21,506 nucleotides of DNA from an uncultured archaeon (lineage in GTDB: Archaea > Asgardarchaeota > Thorarchaeia > Thorarchaeales > Thorarchaeaceae), in contig CAYWJO010000002.1 in the NCBI GenBank assembly GCA_964458565.1, positions 216,822-238,327 on the forward strand, written 5' to 3'. Made by a program: the position numbers and the translations under genes. Below are positions 2,352 to 21,506 of this stretch, piece by piece; the stretch's first letter is position 1, and every line of letters begins with the position of its first letter. The notes under the pieces were generated by a model that was not told the DNA's origin, made no database searches, and saw only the letters and a list, made by a program, of their open reading frames with translations.

Positions 2352-5300
2352 ATGAATTCTAGATATACCCGACCAGCTATTTTGACCGCATCTACTCTAA
2401 TAGTAGGAATGCTTGTGCTCTCGTCATTTTTTGTGCCCTTTGCCTTGTTTCAAAGTCCTAGGGCACCAACTATCACTGACGAACAACAGACAGACTTTGT
2501 CCTCTCTAACGGTGTAACGCCTGAGGTTCAGTGGAGTCGTGTAACAGGGGGTGCTGTTGACTCCTCTCCCAGCGTTGCTGATGTAGATGGTGATGGAGTT
2601 CTAGAAGTGCTTGTCCGGTCGGACGACTATTACCTATACTGCCTAGATGCGACCAATGGGTTAGTTGAATGGAAATTCTTCTTTGGGTATAACAATGTTG
2701 AAACCTCGCCGTCACTCGCAGATATTGATAACGACGGACAGCTTGAGGTTATTATACCAGCAGGAACTCTCTATTGTATTGATGCCTCTCTTGGCACCGA
2801 AGAGTGGTCTGCACCAGGGAATGCGCGGAGTTCAGCGTGCATTGCTGATGTTACTGGAGATGATCGACTTGAAGTTCTCGTTGTTGATGGCACAACCAAT
2901 GCAGTTCGGTGCATAAATAGTACTGGTGGTGAAGAGTGGTCAACTCCGGATTTGGATTTCACTACTCTCTCATCACCAACTGCTGCTGATGTTGATGGTG
3001 ATGACCAACTTGAAGTGTTGTGTGGTTCCTTGAACTATAATTTCTATTGTCTAAACGGTGATACTGGATCTACTGAGTGGAACTTTACAACAGCTGTATC
3101 TTCATCATACACCCCTGCAGTTGCAGATCTTGATGGTGACTCAGTCAAAGATATCGTATTTGGAACAAACTATGGTCATGTCTATTGCCTGAATGGGACT
3201 ATGGGTGGTCTCGAATGGGACTACAATGTTGGAGCATATGCCATCATGTCCACTCCGTGTATTGGTGATGCAGGTAGTGATAGGACACTCGATGTGTTTG
3301 TGGGTACCCAGGACAACTACTTACACTGCATTGATGGTGTATCTGGCACTCAAAAGTGGATAAAAGCAGCAAGTGGTGATGTCGACGGGGATCCGTGTGT
3401 AGTGAATGTTGATGGAGATGATGTACTCGAGGTCTTTGTAGGTGCGGATGACTATGCCATGTATTGCGTTGACTCTGGGTCCGGTTCAACTGATTGGTAT
3501 TATCAAGCAGCAGGTTTCATTGAGTCGTCTCCCTATGTGGGAGACTTGGATGATGATGGGAGGATAGAGATTGTATTCGGGTCCAATGACCGAAACATCT
3601 ACTGTTTGGAAGCTCCTGAACCAAGAGCATCTCATCCGTGGACTGGTGTTGGTCCAAGGGGCGATCCCCATCTCACTGGTTGTTTCTTGGACAATGACAG
3701 TGACCTCCTAACTGACAACTATGAAATCATCGAAGGAATGGAAGAAAACATGGCTGACTCAGATGGGGATTCTGTAGATGATTATCTGGAATTTATCCTC
3801 GCGACAGATCCCCTTGATGGAATGACCATATATCCCCACGTGGAGTGGTCAATCCCTGTGGAGTCTTTAGTACCTAGTTCACCGGTCGTTGTGGATATCA
3901 ATGATGACGGACAGATGGACCTATTTGTAGCATTTGCGGGTCTGTTGATGTGTTTTGATGGCTCTTCATTGGAGCAGTTGTGGAATCGCACCTATACCCT
4001 CCAAATGATTGATACAATCATGGTTGAGGATGTGAACAACGATACCTTGCTAGAGGTACTTGCTGTGAGTGCGAATGTACTCTACTGTTACAGGGGTATT
4101 GATGGATTTCAACTTTGGAACTACACTGCACCTTACACGCTGGACCAAGCTTCGTGTGTATGTGACACGGACTCAGACGGTGACCTTGAGATTGTATTTG
4201 CGTCAGCACACTCAAGTGACCTCCATCTATACTGCGTTGAAGGAAGTACTGGGAATCAGATATGGAACTTCACCACAGCAGGTCTGATAGCTGCTTCGCC
4301 CACTGCAGCTGACCTCAACCATGATGGGCAACTCGATATTGTCTTTGGTGCGTGGGACGACCGTGTATACTGTCTCAATGCTTCAGACGGTACTGAGCTT
4401 TGGCGATACACCGACATCAGTGATCCATCTGGCTATCCTCCAGTGATAGCAGATATTGACCTTGATGGAGACTATGAGGTCTTTGTTGGTGCTTTTGATA
4501 ATCGTATCCATTGTATCAACGGTGTTAATGGATCAATGGAGTGGCGATTCCTCACTACAGACTACACACTATCTTCTGCTACGATTGTTGATGTGAATAA
4601 TGATGGCGCTTTCGAGGCTATCGCACCATCTCGTGATGGAAATGTCTACTGCCTGAACGCTTCAGGGGACATGATGTGGACCTATTATACGGATGGCAAT
4701 ATTCACTGTGGTGCATCGGTGGCAGATATCGATGGGGACAAGGATCTCGAGATACTTGTGACGTCCAGTGACGGCTATCTTCACTGTATTGATGGACCGA
4801 GTGGTTTGTCAGAGTGGACATACTACCTTGGTGATTATGGGTGGGGAATTCCAACAGTGGTTGATTTTGATGGGGACAACATCCTTGAAATGATTGTTAC
4901 TGTTGGATGGTCGGGCACAGGGATGATATACTGTCTTAGTGTAGTGTCAGATTCTATCGGATCTGACTCCTATCCATGGCTTGGTATTGCACCTCTTGGA
5001 GACCCCCTACATAGGGGGAGATATATTGACACTGACCTCGACTTCCTGGTTGATGATTATGAGATTGTAGCAGGTAGTGATGTTTTCTCGTCTGATCCTG
5101 ACACAGATCTATTATCTGACTATCAGGAGTACCTGCAGTCATCTGATCCTATGGTAGACTCTGTTCCACCAGGAGCAATCGAAGACCTAGCTATAAGTGA
5201 TGTAACAAGGACCTCCCTCGTACTCAATTGGAATGCTCCTGGCGAGAATGGGGCTGCTGGAATGACTTCTTCCTACATAGTCAAATGGTCAACCACTGGA

Positions 5301-6620
5301 CCAATAACTGAGGAGAATTGGGAAAGCGCAACGACCTATTCTCAGACATGGACGCCACTTGCACCAGACAATCCAGAGTCGCATCAAGTCACTGGTCTGT
5401 CAGGTGGTCAAGAATACTGGTTCGCAATCCGTGCCTTTGATGAAGACAGTAACATTGGTGAAATGTCAAACAGTCCTGGAACTACGATCATTGAAAACAT
5501 ACTACCTGGCACAATTATTGATTTAGCCGTTGTTAACACAACAACGACTACAGCGACTCTGACTTGGACTGCACCCGGTGATGATGGTGCTTCAGGTACA
5601 GCCTCAGGATACGAAGTCCGATATTCACTGATTGGTTCAATCAATGACATAAATTGGGACTCAGCGGATATCTATGGCCAATCTTGGATTCCTCTTTCTG
5701 GAGGATCTACCGAGACCAGGATCTTGACAGGACTAGACATTCATACAACATACTGGTTTGTAATCAAGGCGTATGATGATGTTGATAATTATGGTCTGGT
5801 TTCAAACAGCCCAGAGGTTCAGACCAATGAGGCGGAAGCACCTGATGCTATAGCAGACCTGAGTGCTTCTAGCATCTCTTCAACGTGGGTCACACTCACA
5901 TGGACTGCACCAGGTGATGACCAAGACACCGGAATCGCTGACGGGTACGTCTTCAAGTACTTGATGACAGGACCAATCACAGAGGAGAATTGGGACACAG
6001 CAATCATCTACGAGCAGTCATGGACACCTTCAGTTTCTGGGACTGCAGAATCAAGAATTATTACAGGCTTGATTCCCAATACCGATTACTGGTTTGCAAT
6101 TGTAGCCTTTGACGAGGTGCCAAACTATGGTGAGCTTTCCAATGTCCTCTCAGTTACCACACTAGAAGACACGCCTCCTAATGCGGTGACTGACTTGGTT
6201 ATGATTGGTCAGAACAGCACTTCGATTGTTCTCTCTTGGACTGCACCTGGTGATGATGGTACTTCAGGTACGGTTTCTGGTTACCTCGTGAAATACTCGT
6301 CCGAAGGTCCAATAACCACTCAAAACTGGAACGCAATAGAATCATCTATCGAGTTCTTAGATCCCTTAGCATCAGGGGAAACGGAAATTCGAATTATCAG
6401 TGGTCTGACTGAAAATACATCCTACTGGATTGCTATGGTAGCATTCGACGAAGTACCCAATCTGAGTGATTTATCCAACCTTGTATATGGACATACAACT
6501 TCCACTTTGAGTACTACAATGCCATTTGAGAGTGGACTTTTGATTGGTATTGCTATAGGCGCTACTGTAGTCGTTCTATCACTAGGACTTGTGGTTCTAC
6601 TCAAAAAGAGAAAGTCATGA
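2352..6620 (+). CDS. Large membrane-anchored surface protein: 2 x (8 FG-GAP/PQQ-like repeats + Asp-rich TSP3-like Ca-binding repeats), 4 fibronectin type III domains, C-terminal TM
   Basis: N-terminal signal/TM; 16 repeats of type SSPxxADxDxDGxxE...YCLxxxxGxxxW; DSDGDSVDDYLE / DTDLDFLVDDYE segments; four PxAIxDL...LxWTAPG...YWFAIxAFDE FN3 units; TM followed by KKRKS; GGAGG upstream. Confidence 0.92.
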   Translation: MNSRYTRPAILTASTLIVGMLVLSSFFVPFALFQSPRAPTITDEQQTDFVLSNGVTPEVQWSRVTGGAVDSSPSVADVDGDGVLEVLVRSDDYYLYCLDATNGLVEWKFFFGYNNVETSPSLADIDNDGQLEVIIPAGTLYCIDASLGTEEWSAPGNARSSACIADVTGDDRLEVLVVDGTTNAVRCINSTGGEEWSTPDLDFTTLSSPTAADVDGDDQLEVLCGSLNYNFYCLNGDTGSTEWNFTTAVSSSYTPAVADLDGDSVKDIVFGTNYGHVYCLNGTMGGLEWDYNVGAYAIMSTPCIGDAGSDRTLDVFVGTQDNYLHCIDGVSGTQKWIKAASGDVDGDPCVVNVDGDDVLEVFVGADDYAMYCVDSGSGSTDWYYQAAGFIESSPYVGDLDDDGRIEIVFGSNDRNIYCLEAPEPRASHPWTGVGPRGDPHLTGCFLDNDSDLLTDNYEIIEGMEENMADSDGDSVDDYLEFILATDPLDGMTIYPHVEWSIPVESLVPSSPVVVDINDDGQMDLFVAFAGLLMCFDGSSLEQLWNRTYTLQMIDTIMVEDVNNDTLLEVLAVSANVLYCYRGIDGFQLWNYTAPYTLDQASCVCDTDSDGDLEIVFASAHSSDLHLYCVEGSTGNQIWNFTTAGLIAASPTAADLNHDGQLDIVFGAWDDRVYCLNASDGTELWRYTDISDPSGYPPVIADIDLDGDYEVFVGAFDNRIHCINGVNGSMEWRFLTTDYTLSSATIVDVNNDGAFEAIAPSRDGNVYCLNASGDMMWTYYTDGNIHCGASVADIDGDKDLEILVTSSDGYLHCIDGPSGLSEWTYYLGDYGWGIPTVVDFDGDNILEMIVTVGWSGTGMIYCLSVVSDSIGSDSYPWLGIAPLGDPLHRGRYIDTDLDFLVDDYEIVAGSDVFSSDPDTDLLSDYQEYLQSSDPMVDSVPPGAIEDLAISDVTRTSLVLNWNAPGENGAAGMTSSYIVKWSTTGPITEENWESATTYSQTWTPLAPDNPESHQVTGLSGGQEYWFAIRAFDEDSNIGEMSNSPGTTIIENILPGTIIDLAVVNTTTTTATLTWTAPGDDGASGTASGYEVRYSLIGSINDINWDSADIYGQSWIPLSGGSTETRILTGLDIHTTYWFVIKAYDDVDNYGLVSNSPEVQTNEAEAPDAIADLSASSISSTWVTLTWTAPGDDQDTGIADGYVFKYLMTGPITEENWDTAIIYEQSWTPSVSGTAESRIITGLIPNTDYWFAIVAFDEVPNYGELSNVLSVTTLEDTPPNAVTDLVMIGQNSTSIVLSWTAPGDDGTSGTVSGYLVKYSSEGPITTQNWNAIESSIEFLDPLASGETEIRIISGLTENTSYWIAMVAFDEVPNLSDLSNLVYGHTTSTLSTTMPFESGLLIGIAIGATVVVLSLGLVVLLKKRKS

Positions 6621-8847: not shown

Positions 8848-10698
8848 ATGAAGGTTACGATTTTGTGTGGAAAGCGAGGTATATTTCTCATATTCATTCT
8901 TGTTCTTGGAATGATTCCTTCTACTTCAATAGACCTACAATCAGGAAACGAAAGGTCTTTTCAATCACCAAAGATTCTGCACACTGCTTTAACTGCTCAT
9001 GACAGAATTCTGATTGCCTCTAATGAAGACTTTGAAACTCAAGCTCTCAATGAGGGGTGGACAGGTAATGGAACTGAAATCAATCCATATGTGATAGAAG
9101 ATTTGAACATGACCATCTATGGCTGGGCTGTTAGTATCAGAAACACTAGTGTTCATTTTAGGATTCAGAATTGTCTTATCAAACGTACTAATTATACTCA
9201 AGATTCACATCTAAATACACGTGCGTGTCTGAATTTCATCAACGTTTCTCATGGAGCAGTAGAGAACTGCGAGATAGTCTCAGACTTGTACACCGTTGAT
9301 ATTCTCTATTCCACGCATTGCAAAATCGAGCATTCAGAAATCTTCGAAACAGTCATTCTTTATTATAGTGACTATTGTTCGATTCTGAACAATACTTTTT
9401 CTGATTTTGATGATACACGCAACTCAGGAATTACATCATGGTATTCAACAGGGGCTAAGATTGCCTTCAATGAGCTATATACTATTGATCTTGACCTAGG
9501 AGTTACTAATTTCATCGTACGCAATAATACTGTGCTTCTGTTCATGCGACTATCTTGTAATAATTCCTTCATTGTCAATAACACCTGTGACAGCTGTACC
9601 ATCCAGAATTCCATCAATCTAACCATCATCAATAATGAGTTTAACTCATATTACTTTACATTTCTCGGGTCTGAAATTGAACACTGGAATACACACACCA
9701 TTGAGAATAACCTCTTCAATGAGCGACCAATTCTTTATTTCAATGGACTAGGTGAATCATCGATAGATGTTAGCGACGCTGGTCTTGTTATCTTAAGTAG
9801 CTGCTATGGAACTGGAATTCAAGGCGGGAGTTTTCAATACCAAAACACTGCAATAGTCGCTGGCTTTTGTCAGGACTGTGTAATTGAAGGCAGCACAGGA
9901 TTTGAGATAGTGTCCTTCATTGAACTATTTTTCTGTAATAATACCCTAATATCTAATAATGACGCCATTAATTGTACCTACTCATACTCTGCTCATGATA
10001 GCAACAACATACAGATTGTTGGCAATACTGCGTTTGGCTCAACTTTTGGAGTTGAAGTCTTCAGTTCCCAAAATTGTATAATTGATTCCAATATATTTAG
10101 CAATCTTATCATAGGAATACGAATTCATGATAGCAGTTATTTGCTGATTAAGAATAATACAATTAGCTTTTGTTATTCAGATGGCCTAGTCGGAGATCCC
10201 TCTAATTCACTGATTATTGATAATATCATATTCAAGAATAAAGGGTGGGGTATTAATTTTGGGCGTGACTCGTTTAACAATGTGTTATACAACAACACAC
10301 TATGGGGGAACAGCCCGACAAATGCATATGACACAGGGGTATCGAATCAGTGGGATGATGGAGTTTCAATTGGTAATGTATGGGATGACTATGATGGCGT
10401 GGGAGTCTACAACATTCCCGGTGATGCTGAGTCTGTAGATCGCTTTCCTCGTGTCTACATTCTAACCATGACAACAAGTTCTGTGATATCTAGTTCTACT
10501 CTTGTGTCTACAGACAAGACTACAACACCTTCGTCTATAACAACATCATCTTTGCCAGTGGATAATTTTCTCCAATTCATTCTACTAATCCTGCTCATAG
10601 TAATAGTGTCACTTGTCATATTCATTATGCTTGTCTATTTGAGAATAAAATCTCAACTACCAAATGCATGGAGGTCCTCAACATCGGAAAACGCGTAA
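8848..10698 (+). CDS. Secreted right-handed parallel beta-helix (NosD/CASH-like) protein, C-terminally anchored
   Basis: Signal peptide; GWTGNGTEINPYVIE motif; many IxNN repeats; NQWDDGVSIGNVWDDYDG...DRFP; Ser/Thr-rich linker; TM. Confidence 0.9.
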   Translation: MKVTILCGKRGIFLIFILVLGMIPSTSIDLQSGNERSFQSPKILHTALTAHDRILIASNEDFETQALNEGWTGNGTEINPYVIEDLNMTIYGWAVSIRNTSVHFRIQNCLIKRTNYTQDSHLNTRACLNFINVSHGAVENCEIVSDLYTVDILYSTHCKIEHSEIFETVILYYSDYCSILNNTFSDFDDTRNSGITSWYSTGAKIAFNELYTIDLDLGVTNFIVRNNTVLLFMRLSCNNSFIVNNTCDSCTIQNSINLTIINNEFNSYYFTFLGSEIEHWNTHTIENNLFNERPILYFNGLGESSIDVSDAGLVILSSCYGTGIQGGSFQYQNTAIVAGFCQDCVIEGSTGFEIVSFIELFFCNNTLISNNDAINCTYSYSAHDSNNIQIVGNTAFGSTFGVEVFSSQNCIIDSNIFSNLIIGIRIHDSSYLLIKNNTISFCYSDGLVGDPSNSLIIDNIIFKNKGWGINFGRDSFNNVLYNNTLWGNSPTNAYDTGVSNQWDDGVSIGNVWDDYDGVGVYNIPGDAESVDRFPRVYILTMTTSSVISSSTLVSTDKTTTPSSITTSSLPVDNFLQFILLILLIVIVSLVIFIMLVYLRIKSQLPNAWRSSTSENA

Positions 10699-10839: not shown

Positions 10840-12780
10840 ATGGAGATTTTCATCATGAAAGGGTGGAATAGATTTGTTTCTTTATCTGTTCTACTAGTAA
10901 TTATTTCATCATTAGGAATTCCAGTAAGTAATCTATCTAGTAGACCTGACTCACCTCGCACCAAACAAAATTTAGCTTATGCACCTCATGTGCCGATTAT
11001 TATCATGTCGAATGCAGAGTTCATTACACAAGCGTCTATTGAAGCATGGTCTGGAAATGGAACCGAACAATCACCGTATGTGATTGAGAATTTTGAGATA
11101 GTAATGAATGAAACAGCGATTATTATAGCGAATACTGATGTTCATTTCATGATTCAGAATTGCCATTTTGAATGCACAAATAGTACACAAGGTCTTGAGA
11201 AATATCATCGCTATTGCGTTGCTCTAGAGAACGTAACAAATGGTATGATTGAAGATTGCGTCGTTCGTTCTAGTCGGAACTCGTTGGGTATTTTTGCAGC
11301 AGTCAATTGCTCAATTATTAGCTCTTATTTTGAAGGTCCTGGTCAGAGTGTCTACATCCGTGATGCACATCATTTTCTCTTCCATAACAACACTCTGAAA
11401 TCTTTGTATCCCTCAATACAATGTTTAACCATCTATAACAACATGTATGTAGAAATCTCTCTTAATAGGATCATAGATTCGGAGACCGGTATAGGTGGTA
11501 GTAGTCTTCAGAGGTGTAAGTTCGTATCCAACATTATCACGAATGCAACATGGAATGGCCTAATGATATATGAGTCCAATGATACTGAAATTCTCAATAA
11601 TACAATCTACTGTATCAGAGAAGGCATAAGTTTAGCAAGAACGCGAAATTTCACAGTAAGAGATAATCTTCTTTACTATGGATATGTTAAGCTCTCGGGT
11701 GAAGTTGTGGAAGATTGGGCAAGTCATTCGATACAGAATAATCTCGTTAATGACCGTCCAGTTCTATACCTGAATGGATTAGATTCTATGAATTTCGATG
11801 TAAGTACTTATGGAGAGGTAATTCTCGCCAACTGTACACGATGTTTGATAGATGGTGGGGACTTTCGTGACTCTGGTGGAGCTGTTCTCGTCGGATTCTG
11901 TATGGATTGTGATCTTGTGGGTTGCCAAGGGCAAAACCTAACAACCAATTTTATCGCTCTTTACTACTCTACAAGATGTAACATTTCATATTCATATTTC
12001 ACAGGGAGCGTTGGCTGTGCATTCTATATGCATTACAGCAATTCATGCTACATCATCGAAGGTTATATTGAGAGTGTATGGAGAGGGATCGATTTCTACT
12101 TCTCAAGAAATTGTATTGTTGAAACAACTGAGATTTGGTGGGTTCAAAACGCTATACAGTGTTCATATTCTATTGGAACGCAAATCATCGGAAACCATCT
12201 TCATGAGGCGGATCACGGTGTCTATCTAGACTCAGCAGCCCGTGTCTTGATTGGCCAGAATCATATCTACAATTGTTATTATAATGGGATAACGTTGAAG
12301 GAAGCCAATCATAATATGGTTACAAATAATCAAATCCACAATTGCAACCAGATGGGTATACATGTTGATGCAGAATGCTACAATAATACATTTGTGAATA
12401 ACATTCTTTGGAGCAACTCTGTTTCGAATGCTTTAGATGATGGAGACACTTCACGCTGGGACGATGGTATTTCGATAGGAAATCATTGGGATGACTACAT
12501 CGGAACTGGTACATATACAATTCCTGGAACTTCACATTCCGTTGACCATTTTCCAACCAAGTATTCTCCCACCACAACTGAACATACAACCCCCTCTAAT
12601 TCCCCTACTACTGTAATGATAACATCGACTTCCACAACAACAACCTCAACGACTCCATCCATACCAACATTTAATTCTGGTGAATTAATGACTATTATTG
12701 GTTGGCTAGTAACAATAGGATCCGTTGGAATTATAATTCTCTTCACTATCAAGATAATACGTATGCGAAGAAAATCCTAG
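10840..12780 (+). CDS. Second NosD/CASH-like beta-helix surface protein (tandem paralogue of 8848..10698; start may be 10855)
   Basis: WSGNGTEQSPYVIE; NDRPVLYLNGL; RWDDGISIGNHWDDYIG...DHFP; Thr-rich linker; TM followed by RMRRKS. Confidence 0.9.
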   Translation: MEIFIMKGWNRFVSLSVLLVIISSLGIPVSNLSSRPDSPRTKQNLAYAPHVPIIIMSNAEFITQASIEAWSGNGTEQSPYVIENFEIVMNETAIIIANTDVHFMIQNCHFECTNSTQGLEKYHRYCVALENVTNGMIEDCVVRSSRNSLGIFAAVNCSIISSYFEGPGQSVYIRDAHHFLFHNNTLKSLYPSIQCLTIYNNMYVEISLNRIIDSETGIGGSSLQRCKFVSNIITNATWNGLMIYESNDTEILNNTIYCIREGISLARTRNFTVRDNLLYYGYVKLSGEVVEDWASHSIQNNLVNDRPVLYLNGLDSMNFDVSTYGEVILANCTRCLIDGGDFRDSGGAVLVGFCMDCDLVGCQGQNLTTNFIALYYSTRCNISYSYFTGSVGCAFYMHYSNSCYIIEGYIESVWRGIDFYFSRNCIVETTEIWWVQNAIQCSYSIGTQIIGNHLHEADHGVYLDSAARVLIGQNHIYNCYYNGITLKEANHNMVTNNQIHNCNQMGIHVDAECYNNTFVNNILWSNSVSNALDDGDTSRWDDGISIGNHWDDYIGTGTYTIPGTSHSVDHFPTKYSPTTTEHTTPSNSPTTVMITSTSTTTTSTTPSIPTFNSGELMTIIGWLVTIGSVGIIILFTIKIIRMRRKS

Positions 12781-16840: not shown

Positions 16841-17764
16841 CTATTTTGTATGATTACTGAAGAAGTACCATATCAATTCACTAGCTTCAAGTGCTTTTAG
16901 AGGATCAGTTGGTTCGCCAGGCCAAACATGTATTCCACTTAAAATGACGCATGCTAGTACATCAGACCTAGTATTTTCTCCAGCATACCTGGTTATTACC
17001 AATGATCCAGCTGTATAATTATCAACAAGGACTGCATTGTTTGCTCTAGTCCAGAAGGAGATCGAATCATTAAATGATAAATCAATACGTGACCCTGCGG
17101 CTAGAATTGCATGCCCTCCTTCAAATGCTACATGTGTATCAGCAGTGCCATGTACAAGAAGGACTGGTAAACGTGCTATAGGTTGTGGAGGCAAATAAAG
17201 CTCAGAATTTCTAGATTCATATCCACCAATCGACCCTGCTACTGGAGCTATCGCTGCAAAAATTTCTGACATCTCTGCTCCTAATCGGTGAGTAAGAATT
17301 GCTCCATTTGACATTCCCGTAGCATATATCCTACTGCTATTAATAGAGTAACTTTCATTCAGATTATTGAGAAGCTGCCGAATGAACTCTACATCATCAA
17401 TATTCTCTTCCAATGCGTATTCGCAACAATATCCTCCGTTCCATGTTAGGAAATAATAGTCTAATCTACCATTCCCATTTGGGTAACAAACAATGAATTC
17501 CTCACGATTTGCAATCTTTGTTAGTCCTGACCTAGCTTCAAACCCTTTTGCATTTCCTCCGCCCCCATGAAATCCTAGAACAAGGGGATACGCCTTACTC
17601 TCTGTGTAATTATCTGGTAATCTTACAATAAACGAGCGAATCCTTCCATCAACTACTATTTTTTGATAATCACTCGAGGTGTAATTGTATGTAGTTATTG
17701 TTGTAATAGATAGTGACAATATAATTAGAATAATAGAAAGTAAGATTGTACGATTTCTTGTCAA
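16841..17764 (-). CDS. Secreted LpqC / PHB-depolymerase-family alpha/beta hydrolase
   Basis: PLVLGFHGGGG; YPNG; WNGGYCC; DDVEFI; nucleophile GMSNG; HGTAD; HVWPG. Its TTG start overlaps the upstream TGA by 4 nt. Confidence 0.9.
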   Translation of the reverse strand: MTRNRTILLSIILIILSLSITTITTYNYTSSDYQKIVVDGRIRSFIVRLPDNYTESKAYPLVLGFHGGGGNAKGFEARSGLTKIANREEFIVCYPNGNGRLDYYFLTWNGGYCCEYALEENIDDVEFIRQLLNNLNESYSINSSRIYATGMSNGAILTHRLGAEMSEIFAAIAPVAGSIGGYESRNSELYLPPQPIARLPVLLVHGTADTHVAFEGGHAILAAGSRIDLSFNDSISFWTRANNAVLVDNYTAGSLVITRYAGENTRSDVLACVILSGIHVWPGEPTDPLKALEASELIWYFFSNHTK

Positions 17765-19299
17765 ACTTTCTCCCCTCGCTTCTTTAGAAGTGCATCAACT
17801 CTAAACTCTAGCGTTGGCTGTCCAGGTGATGCAGAATGATTACTTTCTAATAGCCATCTCAAAGAATCCAGAAGGTCATGGTATTGATTGTAAATTTGAC
17901 TATCGCACCGTTCGTATGCAATGTCCTTTCTCCTCCTCAGAAATATTATCATGATACCATAGACAACAATGTATGTTATGATAACAAGGAGAACCGATAG
18001 GTCGCCGCCAAGAACAAAGAGATCCGCTCTGACATATCCATAGATAGCTAATGCCCCAGTAACTAACCCAATCTGTAACAGCCCTCCAGATGCTACGAAC
18101 GAGTAATCTCGAAATTTATTTGCAATACAAGCTTGTGACAGGATAAATGCAACCAATTTATTGTGTGAGTCTAAATTCCTACATACTGATGCAGGTAATT
18201 CGTAATATCCCCCGATGAAAAGGCTCCCTTTCCTATCAAACACCTGAATATCCTTGCCCTTCGTTTGATTTACAGTGATACTGTCAGATTCAACTATCTT
18301 TCTTAAAATATCTTGAACCTCTTGTAGGATGTTTGAGGTATATCTGAAACGACTCCTAGAATAGAATGCAAATAGACGTGACAATGGCATTAAATTGAAC
18401 ATAGAAACAGTAACTATCATGACTGTTATGATGAAAGACACTGTATAGTGTTCCAGTGGTTGAGGGGAAACCAACCAAGGGGCAGTTTCCCAGACCAAGA
18501 TAAAGATGCAAAGTGTAACAAGTGTGTTTAGAATACTCAGAAGGAATGAAGCGCTCGCTCGCTGGTGCGAAACCTCTTGTGTAGACGCATACCCTCCAAA
18601 AATTGATGCATGTACATGTCCAGGATCTAATCCAAAAACGGTTCTGATTCTTTCTCTTTCTCTCTTCTTCAACGATAATTCTACGCCAAGAAAAATAATC
18701 AGCAAGCCAAATGAAACGAGTGCAGGAATTGAAAATATCCATTGAGATATCGTGCTTAATACATCAACCTGTGGTAATCCAAAAAAGAAACTTAATCCAA
18801 AGAGAAGTGAATAGAACACGTGTTTGATTATTGGGTGTACTGTCCTTTCATTACTCATCTGCCATGCTATAAGTATCTCACCCATTTCAGGACTATTCAG
18901 AATATCTTCCATTGCTGATTTTGATATTGCAATTGTAATCTTTCTAATTCCTACGAGCACATGCATGGAGATGTAATCTTCTTCTCCAATCCATATGTCT
19001 GGAGTTGGTCGAATCATCTCTCGTTTTGAGATCTGTTCCACCATTTGATAGAAAGGCCCATCGTTCAATTCATGATGTGAATAAAGAACTCTCTTCAAAA
19101 TGTGGATTGCCAGTGGAATAAAGAAACCAATAGACATCACAAGGAGAATCATGATTACAGTAGTTTCTTCTTGTGTTTCAGGAGAAAATGTCCCTATTAG
19201 AACTCCTATTAAAACTACCAAGGCTATCCAGAGATATGGCAATAATATTGAATTATTCTTTTCAAATCTCGGGTGATATCTCTCGATTATAGGGCTCAT
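17761..19299 (-). CDS. Multi-pass membrane protein with two degenerate M48/HtpX-like units lacking HExxH
   Basis: About 8 TM segments; HtpX-like segments FYQMVEQISK...PDIWI...IAISKS...EILIAWQMSN and YERCD...LLDSL...QPTLEFRVDAL. Confidence 0.6.
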   Translation of the reverse strand: MSPIIERYHPRFEKNNSILLPYLWIALVVLIGVLIGTFSPETQEETTVIMILLVMSIGFFIPLAIHILKRVLYSHHELNDGPFYQMVEQISKREMIRPTPDIWIGEEDYISMHVLVGIRKITIAISKSAMEDILNSPEMGEILIAWQMSNERTVHPIIKHVFYSLLFGLSFFFGLPQVDVLSTISQWIFSIPALVSFGLLIIFLGVELSLKKRERERIRTVFGLDPGHVHASIFGGYASTQEVSHQRASASFLLSILNTLVTLCIFILVWETAPWLVSPQPLEHYTVSFIITVMIVTVSMFNLMPLSRLFAFYSRSRFRYTSNILQEVQDILRKIVESDSITVNQTKGKDIQVFDRKGSLFIGGYYELPASVCRNLDSHNKLVAFILSQACIANKFRDYSFVASGGLLQIGLVTGALAIYGYVRADLFVLGGDLSVLLVIITYIVVYGIMIIFLRRRKDIAYERCDSQIYNQYHDLLDSLRWLLESNHSASPGQPTLEFRVDALLKKRGEKV

Positions 19300-19925: not shown

Positions 19926-20705
19926 TCAGTCAATTATAACTACGGCATCAACAAAGAGTTCGTAATCCTCCTCTTCGTCGAGGTTTCGAATCAATGCTTT
20001 TTCTACTTCAATTTCGCCACGAATTTCTAGTAAGCGGGATTGATAGAGCACTTTGACTGATGACATTTCTAGCTCTTTTGACAACTCTTTTGTTGTCAGA
20101 ATCTCTTCAGCGGCAGTGAGAAGAATGACTCGATCCGTCTGCGAAGTTAACTCTAAAGCAGTGTCAACTGACTCATCGCCTGTGTGGACAACTAACACGC
20201 GCAAACCTTGGAAATCTTCTGCATCCTCTACAGATGTATAGAATCCCTTGTCAAGAAACTTCTCTTTTCCAACATAACACTCTGGTTCTGGGATTTCTTC
20301 CTCCTTCTCCTCCTCTATGACATCTCCACGAGCAATCCTATAATTCTTGATTGCTTCATGAAGTGCATCCGCTGCAAGGTTGGAGCAATGCATCTTGATT
20401 GGAGGGAGTCCGTCTAGCTCGGTTGCAACATCTTCTCGGGTAATCTTCATTGCATCCTCAAGCTTCATTCCGATGACCATTTCAGTGGTCATACTGCTTG
20501 TTGCGATGGCTGAACCGCATCCAAATGTCCGAAACTTTGCGTCAACAATCACGTCATCTTCGACTTTGATGAAGACTTCCATTAAATCGCCGCAGGTGGG
20601 ATTTCCTACCTTACCCGCAGCTACATCATCTCCTTCTAGAACTCCAACATTTCTTGGGTTTCTAAAATGTTCTAATACTTTTTCTGAATAACTTGTGGAT
20701 TTCAT
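19926..20705 (-). CDS. iscU: Fe-S scaffold IscU/NifU-N (MisU-type) fused to a degenerate thioredoxin-reductase NAD(P)H-domain-like module
   Basis: YSEKVLEHFRNPRNVG; NPTCGD; FGCGSAIA; LPPIKMHCS (aa 1-125); then an acidic linker and GKEKFLDKG...FQGLRVLVVHTGDESVDTALEL...EIRG..VE...ELFVDAVVI. Confidence 0.93.
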   Translation of the reverse strand: MKSTSYSEKVLEHFRNPRNVGVLEGDDVAAGKVGNPTCGDLMEVFIKVEDDVIVDAKFRTFGCGSAIATSSMTTEMVIGMKLEDAMKITREDVATELDGLPPIKMHCSNLAADALHEAIKNYRIARGDVIEEEKEEEIPEPECYVGKEKFLDKGFYTSVEDAEDFQGLRVLVVHTGDESVDTALELTSQTDRVILLTAAEEILTTKELSKELEMSSVKVLYQSRLLEIRGEIEVEKALIRNLDEEEDYELFVDAVVIID

Positions 20706-21506
20706 TTAACTCAACACCTTTCTTTTTGGTTTGTATATGGGTGACATCTCTCTAAGTTTTGATACAATCTCTGGTGTCGCGGTAAGAACACGATCAATGT
20801 CACTCTGTTCTGTGAATCTTCCTACGGTCAATTGCATTGAGCCATGCGCCTCTTCATGCACCAAACCGGTTGCAATCAAGGTATGAGATGGTTCTAGGGT
20901 CTTTGAGGTACAAGCTGAACCTGTTGAAATGGCAATCTGTTTGTCCTTGAAAGAAAGAAGTAATGCTTCACCTTCAAGACCTTCAAATCGGACATGAACG
21001 TTACTTGGTAGGCGCTCTGTTGGATGTCCATTTAGGTATGTGTCAGGGATTGTATCTAGTAATGTGGATATGAGCAAATCTCGATACTTTTTGAATCGTT
21101 TCACTTCCTCATCCATTTCGCTCCTAAGAATCTCCGAAGCTACTTTCATCCCCACAATTCCGGGGATATTCTCACTTCCTGAACGGAGACCGTTTTCCTG
21201 ACCACCACCAATCGACAGTGGGTTTATTCGGTATTTCTTCCGCATGTAGAGCGCACCAACACCCCTTGGTCCATAAAGATCGTTTGATGATAATGCCATC
21301 AGATGTATTCCATCTCTTTTCACATCGATTGGAATTAACCCTTCAGCAGCAACAGCATCACTATGTAAAGCGATTCCACGTTCCTCGGCTAACTTTCCTA
21401 TCTCCTTCATTGGCTGAATTGTACCGATCTCATTACTAGCATAGCCTATGGACATCAGAATTGTATCGTCTCTGATTCTTTGTTCCAGTTTGCGTAGCAC
21501 GATTCT
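20706..21506 (-). CDS. iscS: Cysteine desulfurase-like protein (IscS/NifS group I, MisS-type), 5'-truncated by window edge; PLP Lys replaced by Asp
   Basis: SNEIGTIQP; LHSDAV; SSNDLYGPRGVGALY; GGGQENGLRSGSEN; STGSACTS; LEPSH; LREMSP. Its TAA stop directly abuts the iscU ATG. Confidence 0.95.
   Translation of the reverse strand, partial: RIVLRKLEQRIRDDTILMSIGYASNEIGTIQPMKEIGKLAEERGIALHSDAVAAEGLIPIDVKRDGIHLMALSSNDLYGPRGVGALYMRKKYRINPLSIGGGQENGLRSGSENIPGIVGMKVASEILRSEMDEEVKRFKKYRDLLISTLLDTIPDTYLNGHPTERLPSNVHVRFEGLEGEALLLSFKDKQIAISTGSACTSKTLEPSHTLIATGLVHEEAHGSMQLTVGRFTEQSDIDRVLTATPEIVSKLREMSPIYKPKRKVLS

Follow-up and report, generated by a model that had tools for sequence, protein, structure and literature searches.

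A lysine-less IscS and an IscU fused to a reductase remnant in a tusA-(dsrE) operon of Thorarchaeia

How might sulfur and electrons enter an Isc-type pair (for the assembly of iron-sulfur, Fe-S, clusters) whose IscS has lost the lysine of a cysteine desulfurase and whose IscU carries an additional domain? This question is raised by an iscS-iscU pair on the minus strand at one end of a 21,506-nucleotide stretch of DNA from an uncultured archaeon of the Thorarchaeaceae (the window, meaning this stretch at its full length). We observed that the pair closes a conserved operon of the order tusA-(dsrE)-iscS-iscU. The IscS is a class-V fold protein of the Archaeoglobus fulgidus type that lacks the pyridoxal phosphate (PLP) Lys and has kept its Cys loop and most cofactor-pocket residues. 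The additional domain of the IscU is a conserved remnant of the NADPH subdomain of a thioredoxin reductase (TrxR)-type ferredoxin/flavodoxin-NADP reductase (TFNR), in which every catalytic signature has been lost.

The cut that ends the window falls inside iscS. Position 21506 is the last base of contig C2 (238327 bases), and the gene, broken there, is represented by its C-terminal 266 codons and a TAA stop (20706-21506; MisS-like; Pfam Aminotran_5, PF00266, E 5.3e-37). The stop codon (20706-20708) directly abuts the iscU ATG (20703-20705), and a Shine-Dalgarno-like AGGTG (20715-20719) lies inside the 3' end of iscS, 9 nt before the ATG. Rereading the minus strand reproduced this junction as given in the original prediction, which had been made from the letters of the window. 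The iscU open reading frame (ORF; 19926-20705, with the stop codon at 19926-19928 as read from the ORF) encodes 259 amino acids (aa).

The lysine-less IscS and its IscU partner

An Asp codon (21279-21281) occupies the position of the PLP Schiff-base Lys, within an SSND motif (21279-21290; context LSSNDLYGPRG) that has Asn at the preceding His. HMMER alignment with solved IscS/NFS1 chains placed this Asp on the Schiff-base Lys (4eb5, SSND; 4r5f, SSNK; human NFS1, SGHK), and the loss of the Lys noted in the original prediction was borne out. The GSAC of the mobile Cys loop is retained (20910-20921; Cys codon 20910-20912). The best Protein Data Bank (PDB) match of the window IscS was A. fulgidus IscS2 (4eb5/4eb7/4hvk, E 5e-86), with an identical SSND. 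A full-length orthologue (locus L003) had the class-V aminotransferase fold (Aminotran_5, PF00266, E 5.4e-71) and scored below the NCBIfam equivalog cut-offs (TIGR03402, 465.6 vs 530.75; TIGR02006, 390 vs 643). Across 30 orthologues of the IscS (alignment A3), the loop Cys326 and the PLP-pocket residues H101, D177, and T73 were invariant, which fits a protein that may still bind its cofactor structurally and use its Cys. The IscS cannot be a normal PLP-Lys desulfurase; a role as co-scaffold is plausible.

A Lys-less IscS is by itself not new. The window protein fits the A. fulgidus IscS2 type by its SSND, its kept Cys loop, and its adjacent iscU, all of which are likewise found in the A. fulgidus IscS2-IscU pair (PDB 4EB5, 4EB7, 4HVK; D199K variant 4R5F). 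As summarised in PMC8918507 (section 10), PMC7585200 (discussion), and PMC13066941 (section 2.1), A. fulgidus IscS2 has Asp199 for Lys, contains pyridoxamine phosphate and not PLP, and is described as having no desulfurase activity. The same three sources relate the proposal that it is a mere scaffold partner, giving one Cys ligand to the [2Fe-2S] cluster on IscU; the underlying work is that of Marinoni 2012, Yamanaka 2013, and Pagnier 2015, as cited in PMC8918507 and PMC7585200. The co-scaffold role put forward in the original prediction is plausible but already published for A. fulgidus IscS2. The IscU domains of the two pairs are 59-61% identical (Foldseek). A. fulgidus IscU is plain, with 138 residues in chain 4eb5_C, whereas the window IscU has a 134-residue linker and remnant. 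Because A. fulgidus IscS2 pairs with a plain IscU, the Lys-to-Asp exchange occurs without the fusion.

The first domain of the window IscU (residues 1-125; 20331-20705) is a complete IscU scaffold. NifU_N (PF01592) matched residues 6-123 (E 2.4e-48; 163.9 bits vs a cut-off of 22), TIGR03419 scored 188.7 against a cut-off of 187.9, and Foldseek gave a target TM-score of up to 0.92 to IscU structures. The cluster-ligand Cys C38, C63, and C107 and the assembly-site D40 and H106 were invariant in 54 sequences, and Y6 and the LPPIK motif are present. Unrelated archaea have unfused IscUs that share 70-80% identity with this domain, which is too conserved for a resolving tree. Some 134 residues follow NifU_N, in agreement with the extra domain of ~130 aa that had been described from the sequence.

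The tusA-(dsrE)-iscS-iscU operon

The pair had been described in the original prediction as a bare two-gene system of the minimal (MIS) type. It looks like two genes because the window ends at the contig end, which hid the genes upstream. In the source genome, which is 93% complete, ~127 N-terminal codons of iscS are unassembled, and tblastn found no IscS N-terminus on any contig. Searches of the genome by tblastn with proteins of the complete Thorarchaeota chromosome CP070761.1 showed that contig C91 starts, in matching orientation, with a 131-aa ORF, tusA, and the first 37 codons of dsrE. The unassembled gap between C2 and C91 is ~660 bases; other assemblies with an identical IscU consist here of contigs of at most 1.7 kb, none of which bridges it. 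On CP070761.1 the order is a 136-aa ORF, tusA, dsrE, iscS (389 aa, SSND), and the iscU fusion (257 aa).

The same order, tusA-(dsrE)-iscS-iscU, recurs in ~100 Asgard loci. In a search of 400 Asgard genomes, the fused IscU was matched over its full length in most members of the source's family (f1) and in five other families (f17, f19, f21, f22, and f23). In 20 loci from six Asgard families, an SSND or SSNE IscS lay directly upstream of the fusion in 19, tusA was present in 18, and dsrE in 14. Such an iscS was also directly upstream in 24 of 29 further f1 loci; nothing was seen directly upstream in the remaining five. A pattern scan of species-representative genomes returned 218 genomes with a relative of the C-terminal domain, from which 80 named species loci were kept for counts. 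These were labelled Thorarchaeota, Promethearchaeota, Hermodarchaeota, Hodarchaeota, Odinarchaeota, and, in one case, 'bacterium', and their upstream genes included iscS in 72, tusA in 63, and dsrE in 41.

Every readable IscS motif beside a fused IscU lacked the Lys (65 of 65; 58 SSND, six SSNE, one SAND), so that no fused IscU without a Lys-less IscS was found among the loci examined. The occurrence of the fusion independently of the altered IscS, named beforehand as the finding that would count against a link, was therefore not seen. The idea that both partners were modified together holds in one direction, the fusion always having a Lys-less neighbour, but not in the other, since A. fulgidus has the exchange without the fusion. 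An apparent fusion without an SSND IscS in one subgroup of genus g12 was rejected; an opposite-strand gene of 585 aa is inserted there between iscS and iscU, and the contig, or else the genome, still carries an SSND IscS. Most of the short IscU matches (160-224 aa) were pieces of the fusion or frameshifted calls of it; some came from bacterial metagenome-assembled genomes (MAGs), and fusion fragments were found in MAGs of Thermoleophilia, Thermodesulfobacteriota, and WOR-3.

The two upstream genes encode sulfur carriers in which the carrier Cys is kept. TusA and DsrE of L003 scored 83.8 bits to PF01206 and 60 bits to PF02635. Of 20 TusA-like ORFs scanned, 19 had the CPxP Cys, all but a second, divergent copy in locus L053, and the CEASK Cys of DsrE was present in 14 of 14. 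The tusA of the source genome (contig C91) reads CPQP, and its dsrE is cut after 37 codons at the contig edge. With a carrier Cys in each of tusA and dsrE, the operon departs from a bare MIS-type pair, and the supply of free sulfide suggested in the original prediction gives way to protein-bound persulfide, to which these Cys residues point. The comparison with A. fulgidus covered its IscS and IscU; the pair in the Thor operon is preceded by tusA and dsrE.

The carriers also raise the possibility that the operon is mainly a sulfur relay for thio-cofactors or tRNA thiolation, like IscS-TusA-TusBCD of Escherichia coli, with IscU as an accessory. TusA and a DsrE-family protein form the classical 2-thiouridine relay, and E. 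coli TusA binds IscS (PMC2854127), so that the Thor operon resembles the E. coli IscS network (IscU, TusA, CyaY, IscX, Fdx, ThiI; PMC2854127) in having both kinds of protein work with IscS. In E. coli, sulfur passes from IscS to TusA to TusBCD, whereas flow in the Thor operon would run towards IscS and IscU. A Lys-less IscS cannot start a relay from cysteine, and the fused IscU retains all cluster ligands. The homologous A. fulgidus pair holds a [2Fe-2S] cluster, according to the account in PMC13066941, and where SufB/SmsB goes undetected, as in the source genome and ~60% of its family, Isc-type pairs are the sole recognisable Fe-S machinery. We consider such a relay very unlikely to be the main function.

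Two further genes were seen at these loci. The 131-136-aa ORF upstream of tusA is present in the source genome (C91, 450-842, minus strand), in 11 of the 80 related loci, and at L003 (3696-4106) and L053 (3493-3900). It had no Pfam or NCBIfam match, and its DGHTRL motif looks ParB/sulfiredoxin-like. In family f22 (labelled Promethearchaeota), a protein of 789-795 aa is encoded 0.2-2 kb downstream of the iscU fusion (L037, 7035-9419; L041, L042, and L043). The L037 copy comprises Pyr_redox_2, a dimerisation domain, TusA, and two rhodanese domains, and resembles coenzyme A-disulfide/persulfide reductases; it may add further sulfane-sulfur chemistry to the locus.

The C-terminal remnant and its predicted docking on IscS

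We modelled the fused IscU with AlphaFold2 on 54 sequences (overall predicted local distance difference test (pLDDT) 83). The model showed two confident domains joined by a disordered stretch at residues 130-143. The acidic linker (residues 126-145; 20271-20330) has a net charge of -7, with pLDDT below 50 at 130-143. We rejected its Cys143 (20277-20279) as a universal extra ligand or persulfide carrier; it was invariant only in the core Thor clade, and other families have D, I, V, S, or P. The iscU fusions of family f21 (L034, L039, and L040) have a short extra C-terminal tail with one Cys (e.g. TECSDD, CADDD, and CEN), which the other families lack.

The C-terminal domain (residues 146-259; 19929-20270; net charge -16) was identified by structure and by distant profile similarity. 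Pfam returned Pyr_redox families only below threshold for residues 142-253. TIGR01292 aligned residues 146-257 with positions 119-232 of its 300 (E 4.5e-12; 45.4 bits vs a cut-off of 343). Foldseek matched the domain, as an NADPH-subdomain fold, to 2zbw, 3f8p, and 3lzw with probability 1.00 over 119-125 columns (root-mean-square deviation (rmsd) 1.6-3.3), with 31-32% identity to 2zbw and an rmsd of 1.6 to 3f8p. Its closest likeness is to TrxR-type ferredoxin/flavodoxin-NADP+ reductases and low-Mr TrxRs (T. thermophilus 2ZBW, B. subtilis YumC 3LZW, and S. solfataricus TrxR-B3 3F8P), which share its fold with collinear sequence (rmsd 1.6-2.1).

Alignment with the solved chains showed what has been lost. 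The GGGDSA loop has become HTGDES (20169-20186), the HRRxxFRA segment that binds the 2'-phosphate is deleted, and neither a CxxC nor an FAD domain is present; the FAD and NADPH sites of TrxR and ferredoxin-NADP reductase are thus missing. Unlike the TrxR-type reductases, the remnant is therefore without FAD domain, GxGxxA loop, HRR 2'-phosphate site, and CxxC, is strongly acidic, and is fused to IscU. The former Gly loop varies between Asgard families (HTGDES, ENGEKS, DTGDEA, EYDQKS, and others). Ten other positions are invariant across these families (R169, A183, L186, R192, V193, S215, G230, E244, Y248, and D253). The domain carries a net charge of -18 over 122 residues (Thor median -19), compared with -2 for stand-alone NADPH domains; its acidity is milder in the other Asgard families (-4 to -14).

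With all catalytic motifs gone, the extension might be a decaying, functionless relic of a former fusion. The frame is open and of constant length (257-263 aa in total) in 54 aligned proteins and ~150 further genome matches from several Asgard families. Mean column identity was 78% over the whole protein within Thor and 56% for the C-terminal domain across families, with the ten invariant positions above, and the predicted fold is confident (AlphaFold2 pLDDT 82-94 across residues 150-259). We regard a relic without function as extremely unlikely.

We next consider where such a domain could act. A complex of two IscS copies (alignment A3) with the C-terminal domain as partner (alignment A4) was modelled with ESMFold2. 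The docking score was 0.73, and the highest of three control scores was 0.00. Of 80 solved complexes 58 scored this high, as did two of 110 mismatched pairs, figures that serve as a rough guide only, as we used our own alignments and a 2+1 chain layout unlike that of the calibration. Three runs shared at least 90% of their contacts, with a partner pLDDT of at least 88. No complex of this kind is among those solved, so the model is unlikely to have passed by recalling one.

The predicted contacts of the C-terminal domain were residues 167, 169 (R), 191, 192 (R), 194, 218, 220, 230-232, 235-236, and 248-252 (including Y248). The interface holds eight of the 26 conserved positions of the domain, among them the invariant R169, R192, G230, and Y248 (hypergeometric P = 0.01). 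On the IscS side, one protomer contributes residues 98, 119-137, and 338-346 (L003 numbering), which correspond to about residues 122-140 and 340-348 of E. coli IscS by alignment offsets and not by superposition. On E. coli IscS, the docking region of the acidic partners is around R116, R220-R225, and R340, next to where IscU binds, and the remnant footprint falls at the equivalents ~340-348 and 122-140. Since R340E and R116E in E. coli IscS weaken the binding of CyaY, IscX, and ThiI and not of IscU (PMC2854127, Table 3), the acidic remnant is predicted by this model to sit beside, not on, the IscU site, in the region of the acidic accessory proteins. Unlike those partners, the Thor docking module is tethered covalently to IscU, and its fold is unrelated to CyaY, IscX, and Fdx. 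The original prediction had proposed that the fused module docks an electron, iron, or sulfur donor; docking is indeed predicted, but the domain can be identified and is predicted to bind IscS itself.

The position and charge of the domain suggest another possibility, a built-in frataxin/CyaY-like module that would deliver or hold iron, or regulate sulfur transfer, beyond anchoring. The net charge in Thor would suit this role, and the predicted footprint overlaps the R340 region of E. coli IscS, where mutation weakens CyaY and IscX binding. The acidity is, however, much lower in the other Asgard families, the residues invariant in all families include two Arg and a Tyr and form no acidic ridge, and Foldseek gave no fold relation to frataxin. 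We find a frataxin-like function quite unlikely.

Full-length relatives and the route of sulfur and electrons

We searched 1.84 billion representatives with a profile of the C-terminal domain. Ranked just above the stand-alone reductases was a 443-aa protein (P0154) in which IscU is joined to a complete TrxR-like flavoprotein, with GGGPAG for FAD, GGGNSA and HRK for NADPH, and no CxxC. About 100 such full-length fusions of 441-454 aa were found, labelled NifU, IscU 2, or thioredoxin reductase in the databases; the named sources are Ca. Methanoperedens, Methanosarcinales, Ca. Methanocomedens (ANME-2a), and Ca. Jordarchaeaceae. Among the 400 Asgard genomes, the full-length fusion occurred in all six genomes of family f16 and in no other family.

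These fusions resemble the window locus in their N-terminal IscU, the SSND IscS upstream, and a dsrE or tusA in the operon. One locus has an SSND iscS, iscU::TFNR, and flavodoxin (L063). Methanoperedens loci have dsrE, a small rubredoxin-like gene, an SSND iscS, iscU::TFNR, and flavodoxin (L074/L075), and a further locus has tusA, an SSND iscS, a HAD gene, and iscU::TFNR (L076). They differ from the window protein in keeping the whole FAD domain, and the Methanoperedens forms also keep intact NADPH motifs and a downstream flavodoxin. From their motifs, the Methanoperedens fusions could plausibly act as reductases; the window protein cannot. Across the full-length forms the FAD motif is always intact and the NADPH loop decays stepwise, from GGGNSA with HRK in Methanoperedens, through YGNGEQA with AYKEKD in Jordarchaeia, to YGHGYNA in ANME-2a. 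The Jordarchaeial fusions share an acidic EDEDFEL motif with the remnant.

In a tree of 85 NADPH subdomains, all stripped domains formed one clade (100/100) on a long stem, and there is good support for the remnant having arisen once. An attempt to nest it within the clade of full fusions was abandoned, the tree being unresolved at that point (83/60) and the approximately unbiased (AU) test neutral. On contig C5 of the source genome (1108-3255), a gene for a flavodiiron protein is immediately followed by one for a stand-alone TrxR-type reductase that lacks CxxC and shares 42% identity with the flavoprotein portion of the IscU fusion from Jordarchaeia.

A remnant of this ancestry might still be redox active, binding a dinucleotide (e.g. 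NADH) or pairing in trans with a flavoprotein or flavodoxin, and so admit electrons for persulfide reduction or [2Fe-2S] coupling. It derives from an NADPH domain, an acidic residue closes strand beta2 (LLTPE) as in NAD-type Rossmann folds, and full IscU-flavoprotein fusions, some with an adjacent flavodoxin, stand beside the same IscS type. The stand-alone TFNR homologue on C5 adjoins a flavodiiron protein, and the electron donor of MIS systems is acknowledged as an unknown in the legend of Fig. 3 of PMC13066941. Against these points, the Gly loop is unconserved among orthologues, which have His, Tyr, Glu, or Asp at its first Gly. A deletion has removed HRR and four residues next to it, the protein has no flavin domain and no Cys pair, and the positions invariant throughout the family map to the predicted interface with IscS and not to the nucleotide site. 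We judge a redox role for the remnant unlikely.

We also assessed the remaining Fe-S assembly genes. The 93%-complete source genome gave no match to HscB (PF07743), the A-type carrier IscA (PF01521), or SufB/D, and the window has no hscA, hscB, iscA, or fdx downstream of the pair, as had been noted from the sequence. SufB is present in 34 of 85 f1 genomes and 89 of 135 f22 genomes, both fusion-bearing families, and the fused operon was not simply anticorrelated with the SMS system (SufB). A second iscS-iscU pair with a plain 142-aa IscU lies on contig C14 (16775-18988; locus L002 covers C14:17195-20439). In its IscS the PLP Lys is replaced by His (FDAHHIHGPKG) and the PLP-stacking His by Gln. 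This Lys-to-His paralogue occurs in four other f1 genomes. The C14 pair is preceded by a gene for a 152-aa helix-turn-helix protein that ends in a four-Cys cluster, a candidate Fe-S-sensing regulator.

The MIS system (MisS/MisU; Garcia et al. 2022) is described in the reviews PMC13066941 and PMC12192291 as a pair only, with a cysteine desulfurase. As far as these accounts go, the window pair is like it: an IscS-like and an IscU-like protein form a pair in anaerobic archaea, and HscAB, IscA, and a dedicated ferredoxin are missing. The window pair differs in its Lys-less 'desulfurase', in the two sulfur-carrier genes of the operon, and in the extra scaffold domain. In lacking HscAB, IscA, and Fdx the pair agrees with the MIS definition; it departs from the two-component make-up with an active desulfurase. 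A precedent for fusing an IscU-type scaffold to modules for redox or transfer steps is NifU of the NIF system; its extra modules are [2Fe-2S] ferredoxin-like and Nfu domains with no flavoprotein piece, and its partner NifS is an active desulfurase.

Taken together, we lean towards a reading, which we hold to be probable by a modest measure, in which persulfide passes from TusA/DsrE to the IscS loop and IscU, the remnant is an anchor on IscS, and a flavoprotein brings electrons in the full-length relatives. The IscS would not desulfurate cysteine; its part would be that of a structural co-scaffold for IscU and a relay of persulfide, along the lines put forward for A. fulgidus IscS2. Sulfane sulfur may reach its Cys loop from the carrier Cys of TusA and DsrE; possible loaders of the carriers are a separate SufS-like desulfurase, a persulfide/polysulfide pool, or sulfide. 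The remnant would be a non-redox, second built-in anchor on IscS, beside the IscU site, in the CyaY/IscX/ThiI region. Such anchoring would keep the scaffold on IscS and might take over or gate the accessory site. The remnant may descend from a full IscU-flavoprotein fusion, which is intact in Methanoperedens, ANME, and Jordarchaeia beside an SSND IscS. The full-length flavoprotein, with flavodoxin in Methanoperedens-type loci, could plausibly give electrons for persulfide reduction or cluster coupling.

Several observations weigh against this reading. About half of the loci have no dsrE and some have no tusA, and the ~127 N-terminal residues of the IscS are unassembled, so that the integrity of the gene in the source genome is inferred from orthologues. 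Contig C25 encodes a SufS-like protein with the Lys and a C-terminal catalytic Cys, and the genome holds several other class-V aminotransferases. Because this SufS-like protein keeps Lys and Cys, cysteine may still be the ultimate sulfur source, with a route to the carriers. The cysteine-independent variant of the original prediction is accordingly tenable for the IscS, which has no PLP Lys, and less secure for the genome as a whole, which keeps a Lys-bearing desulfurase-like protein.

The docking and the ancestry have their own counterweights. The docking score expresses how confident the model is and measures no binding, residues were carried over to E. coli by alignment offsets, and the model took in the C-terminal domain alone, not both domains on one protomer joined by the 20-residue linker. 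The GL.HEEAHG segment of the predicted IscS interface is also kept in A. fulgidus IscS2, which has no fused partner, and so it is not specific evidence of co-evolution. PMC8918507 describes the role that A. fulgidus IscS2 plays in vivo as still unsettled. The stripped clade was weakly placed (83/60) next to, not inside, a group of full fusions and stand-alone homologues that includes the C5 reductase, and joining it with the full fusions was not rejected (AU P = 0.41). Descent of the remnant from a full fusion is compatible with these data and plausible because of the shared operon. A stronger version, in which the operon is a self-contained machine without a desulfurase of its own, TusA/DsrE persulfide loads the Cys loop of the PLP-dead IscS, the remnant is a permanent clamp of IscU at the frataxin/ferredoxin site of IscS, and the full-length relatives are the built-in electron donor of MIS-type systems, is possible but doubtful.

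The remaining genes of the window are mentioned for completeness. The genes downstream of iscU encode a GNAT acetyltransferase, a membrane protein of 512 aa, and an esterase. The multi-pass membrane protein (17761-19299, minus strand) is encoded directly past the GNAT gene, two genes 3' of iscU, and matched no Pfam family; the esterase-like gene (16841-17764) follows it. Other genes, unrelated to the iscS-iscU pair, are those for NrdD, for reductase, MBL-fold, and glycosylase proteins (FMN reductase and HhH-GPD glycosylase), and for a protein of 1422 aa that combines FG-GAP/beta-propeller repeats with four fn3 domains (2352-6620, plus strand). The last of these is followed by two NosD-like beta-helix proteins (8848-10698 and 10840-12780); these are probably a cell-surface gene group, likewise unrelated to the pair.

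We found no publication on the stripped or the full-length IscU fusion, or on a link of tusA/dsrE to a Lys-less IscS, and databases label both fusions simply NifU or IscU. The remark in the original prediction that it knew of no description of this combination therefore stands for the fusion and not for the Lys-to-Asp IscS or its co-scaffold role, both of which are published. New here are the fused IscU, the site at which its remnant is predicted to dock, the presence of carrier genes, and a series of relatives of full length. The locus and its relatives offer concrete, clonable candidates: two carriers with an invariant Cys in an operon with a dead desulfurase, and an IscU fusion family that spans a complete NADPH flavoprotein with flavodoxin to a non-catalytic anchor. 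If the stronger version is true, they would form an evolutionary series for how sulfur and electrons enter ancestral Isc-type machinery. Because SufB/SmsB was undetected in the source genome and in ~60% of its family, many Asgard archaea, which of all prokaryotes are most closely related to eukaryotes, may rely on Isc-type pairs like the one described here for their housekeeping Fe-S assembly.

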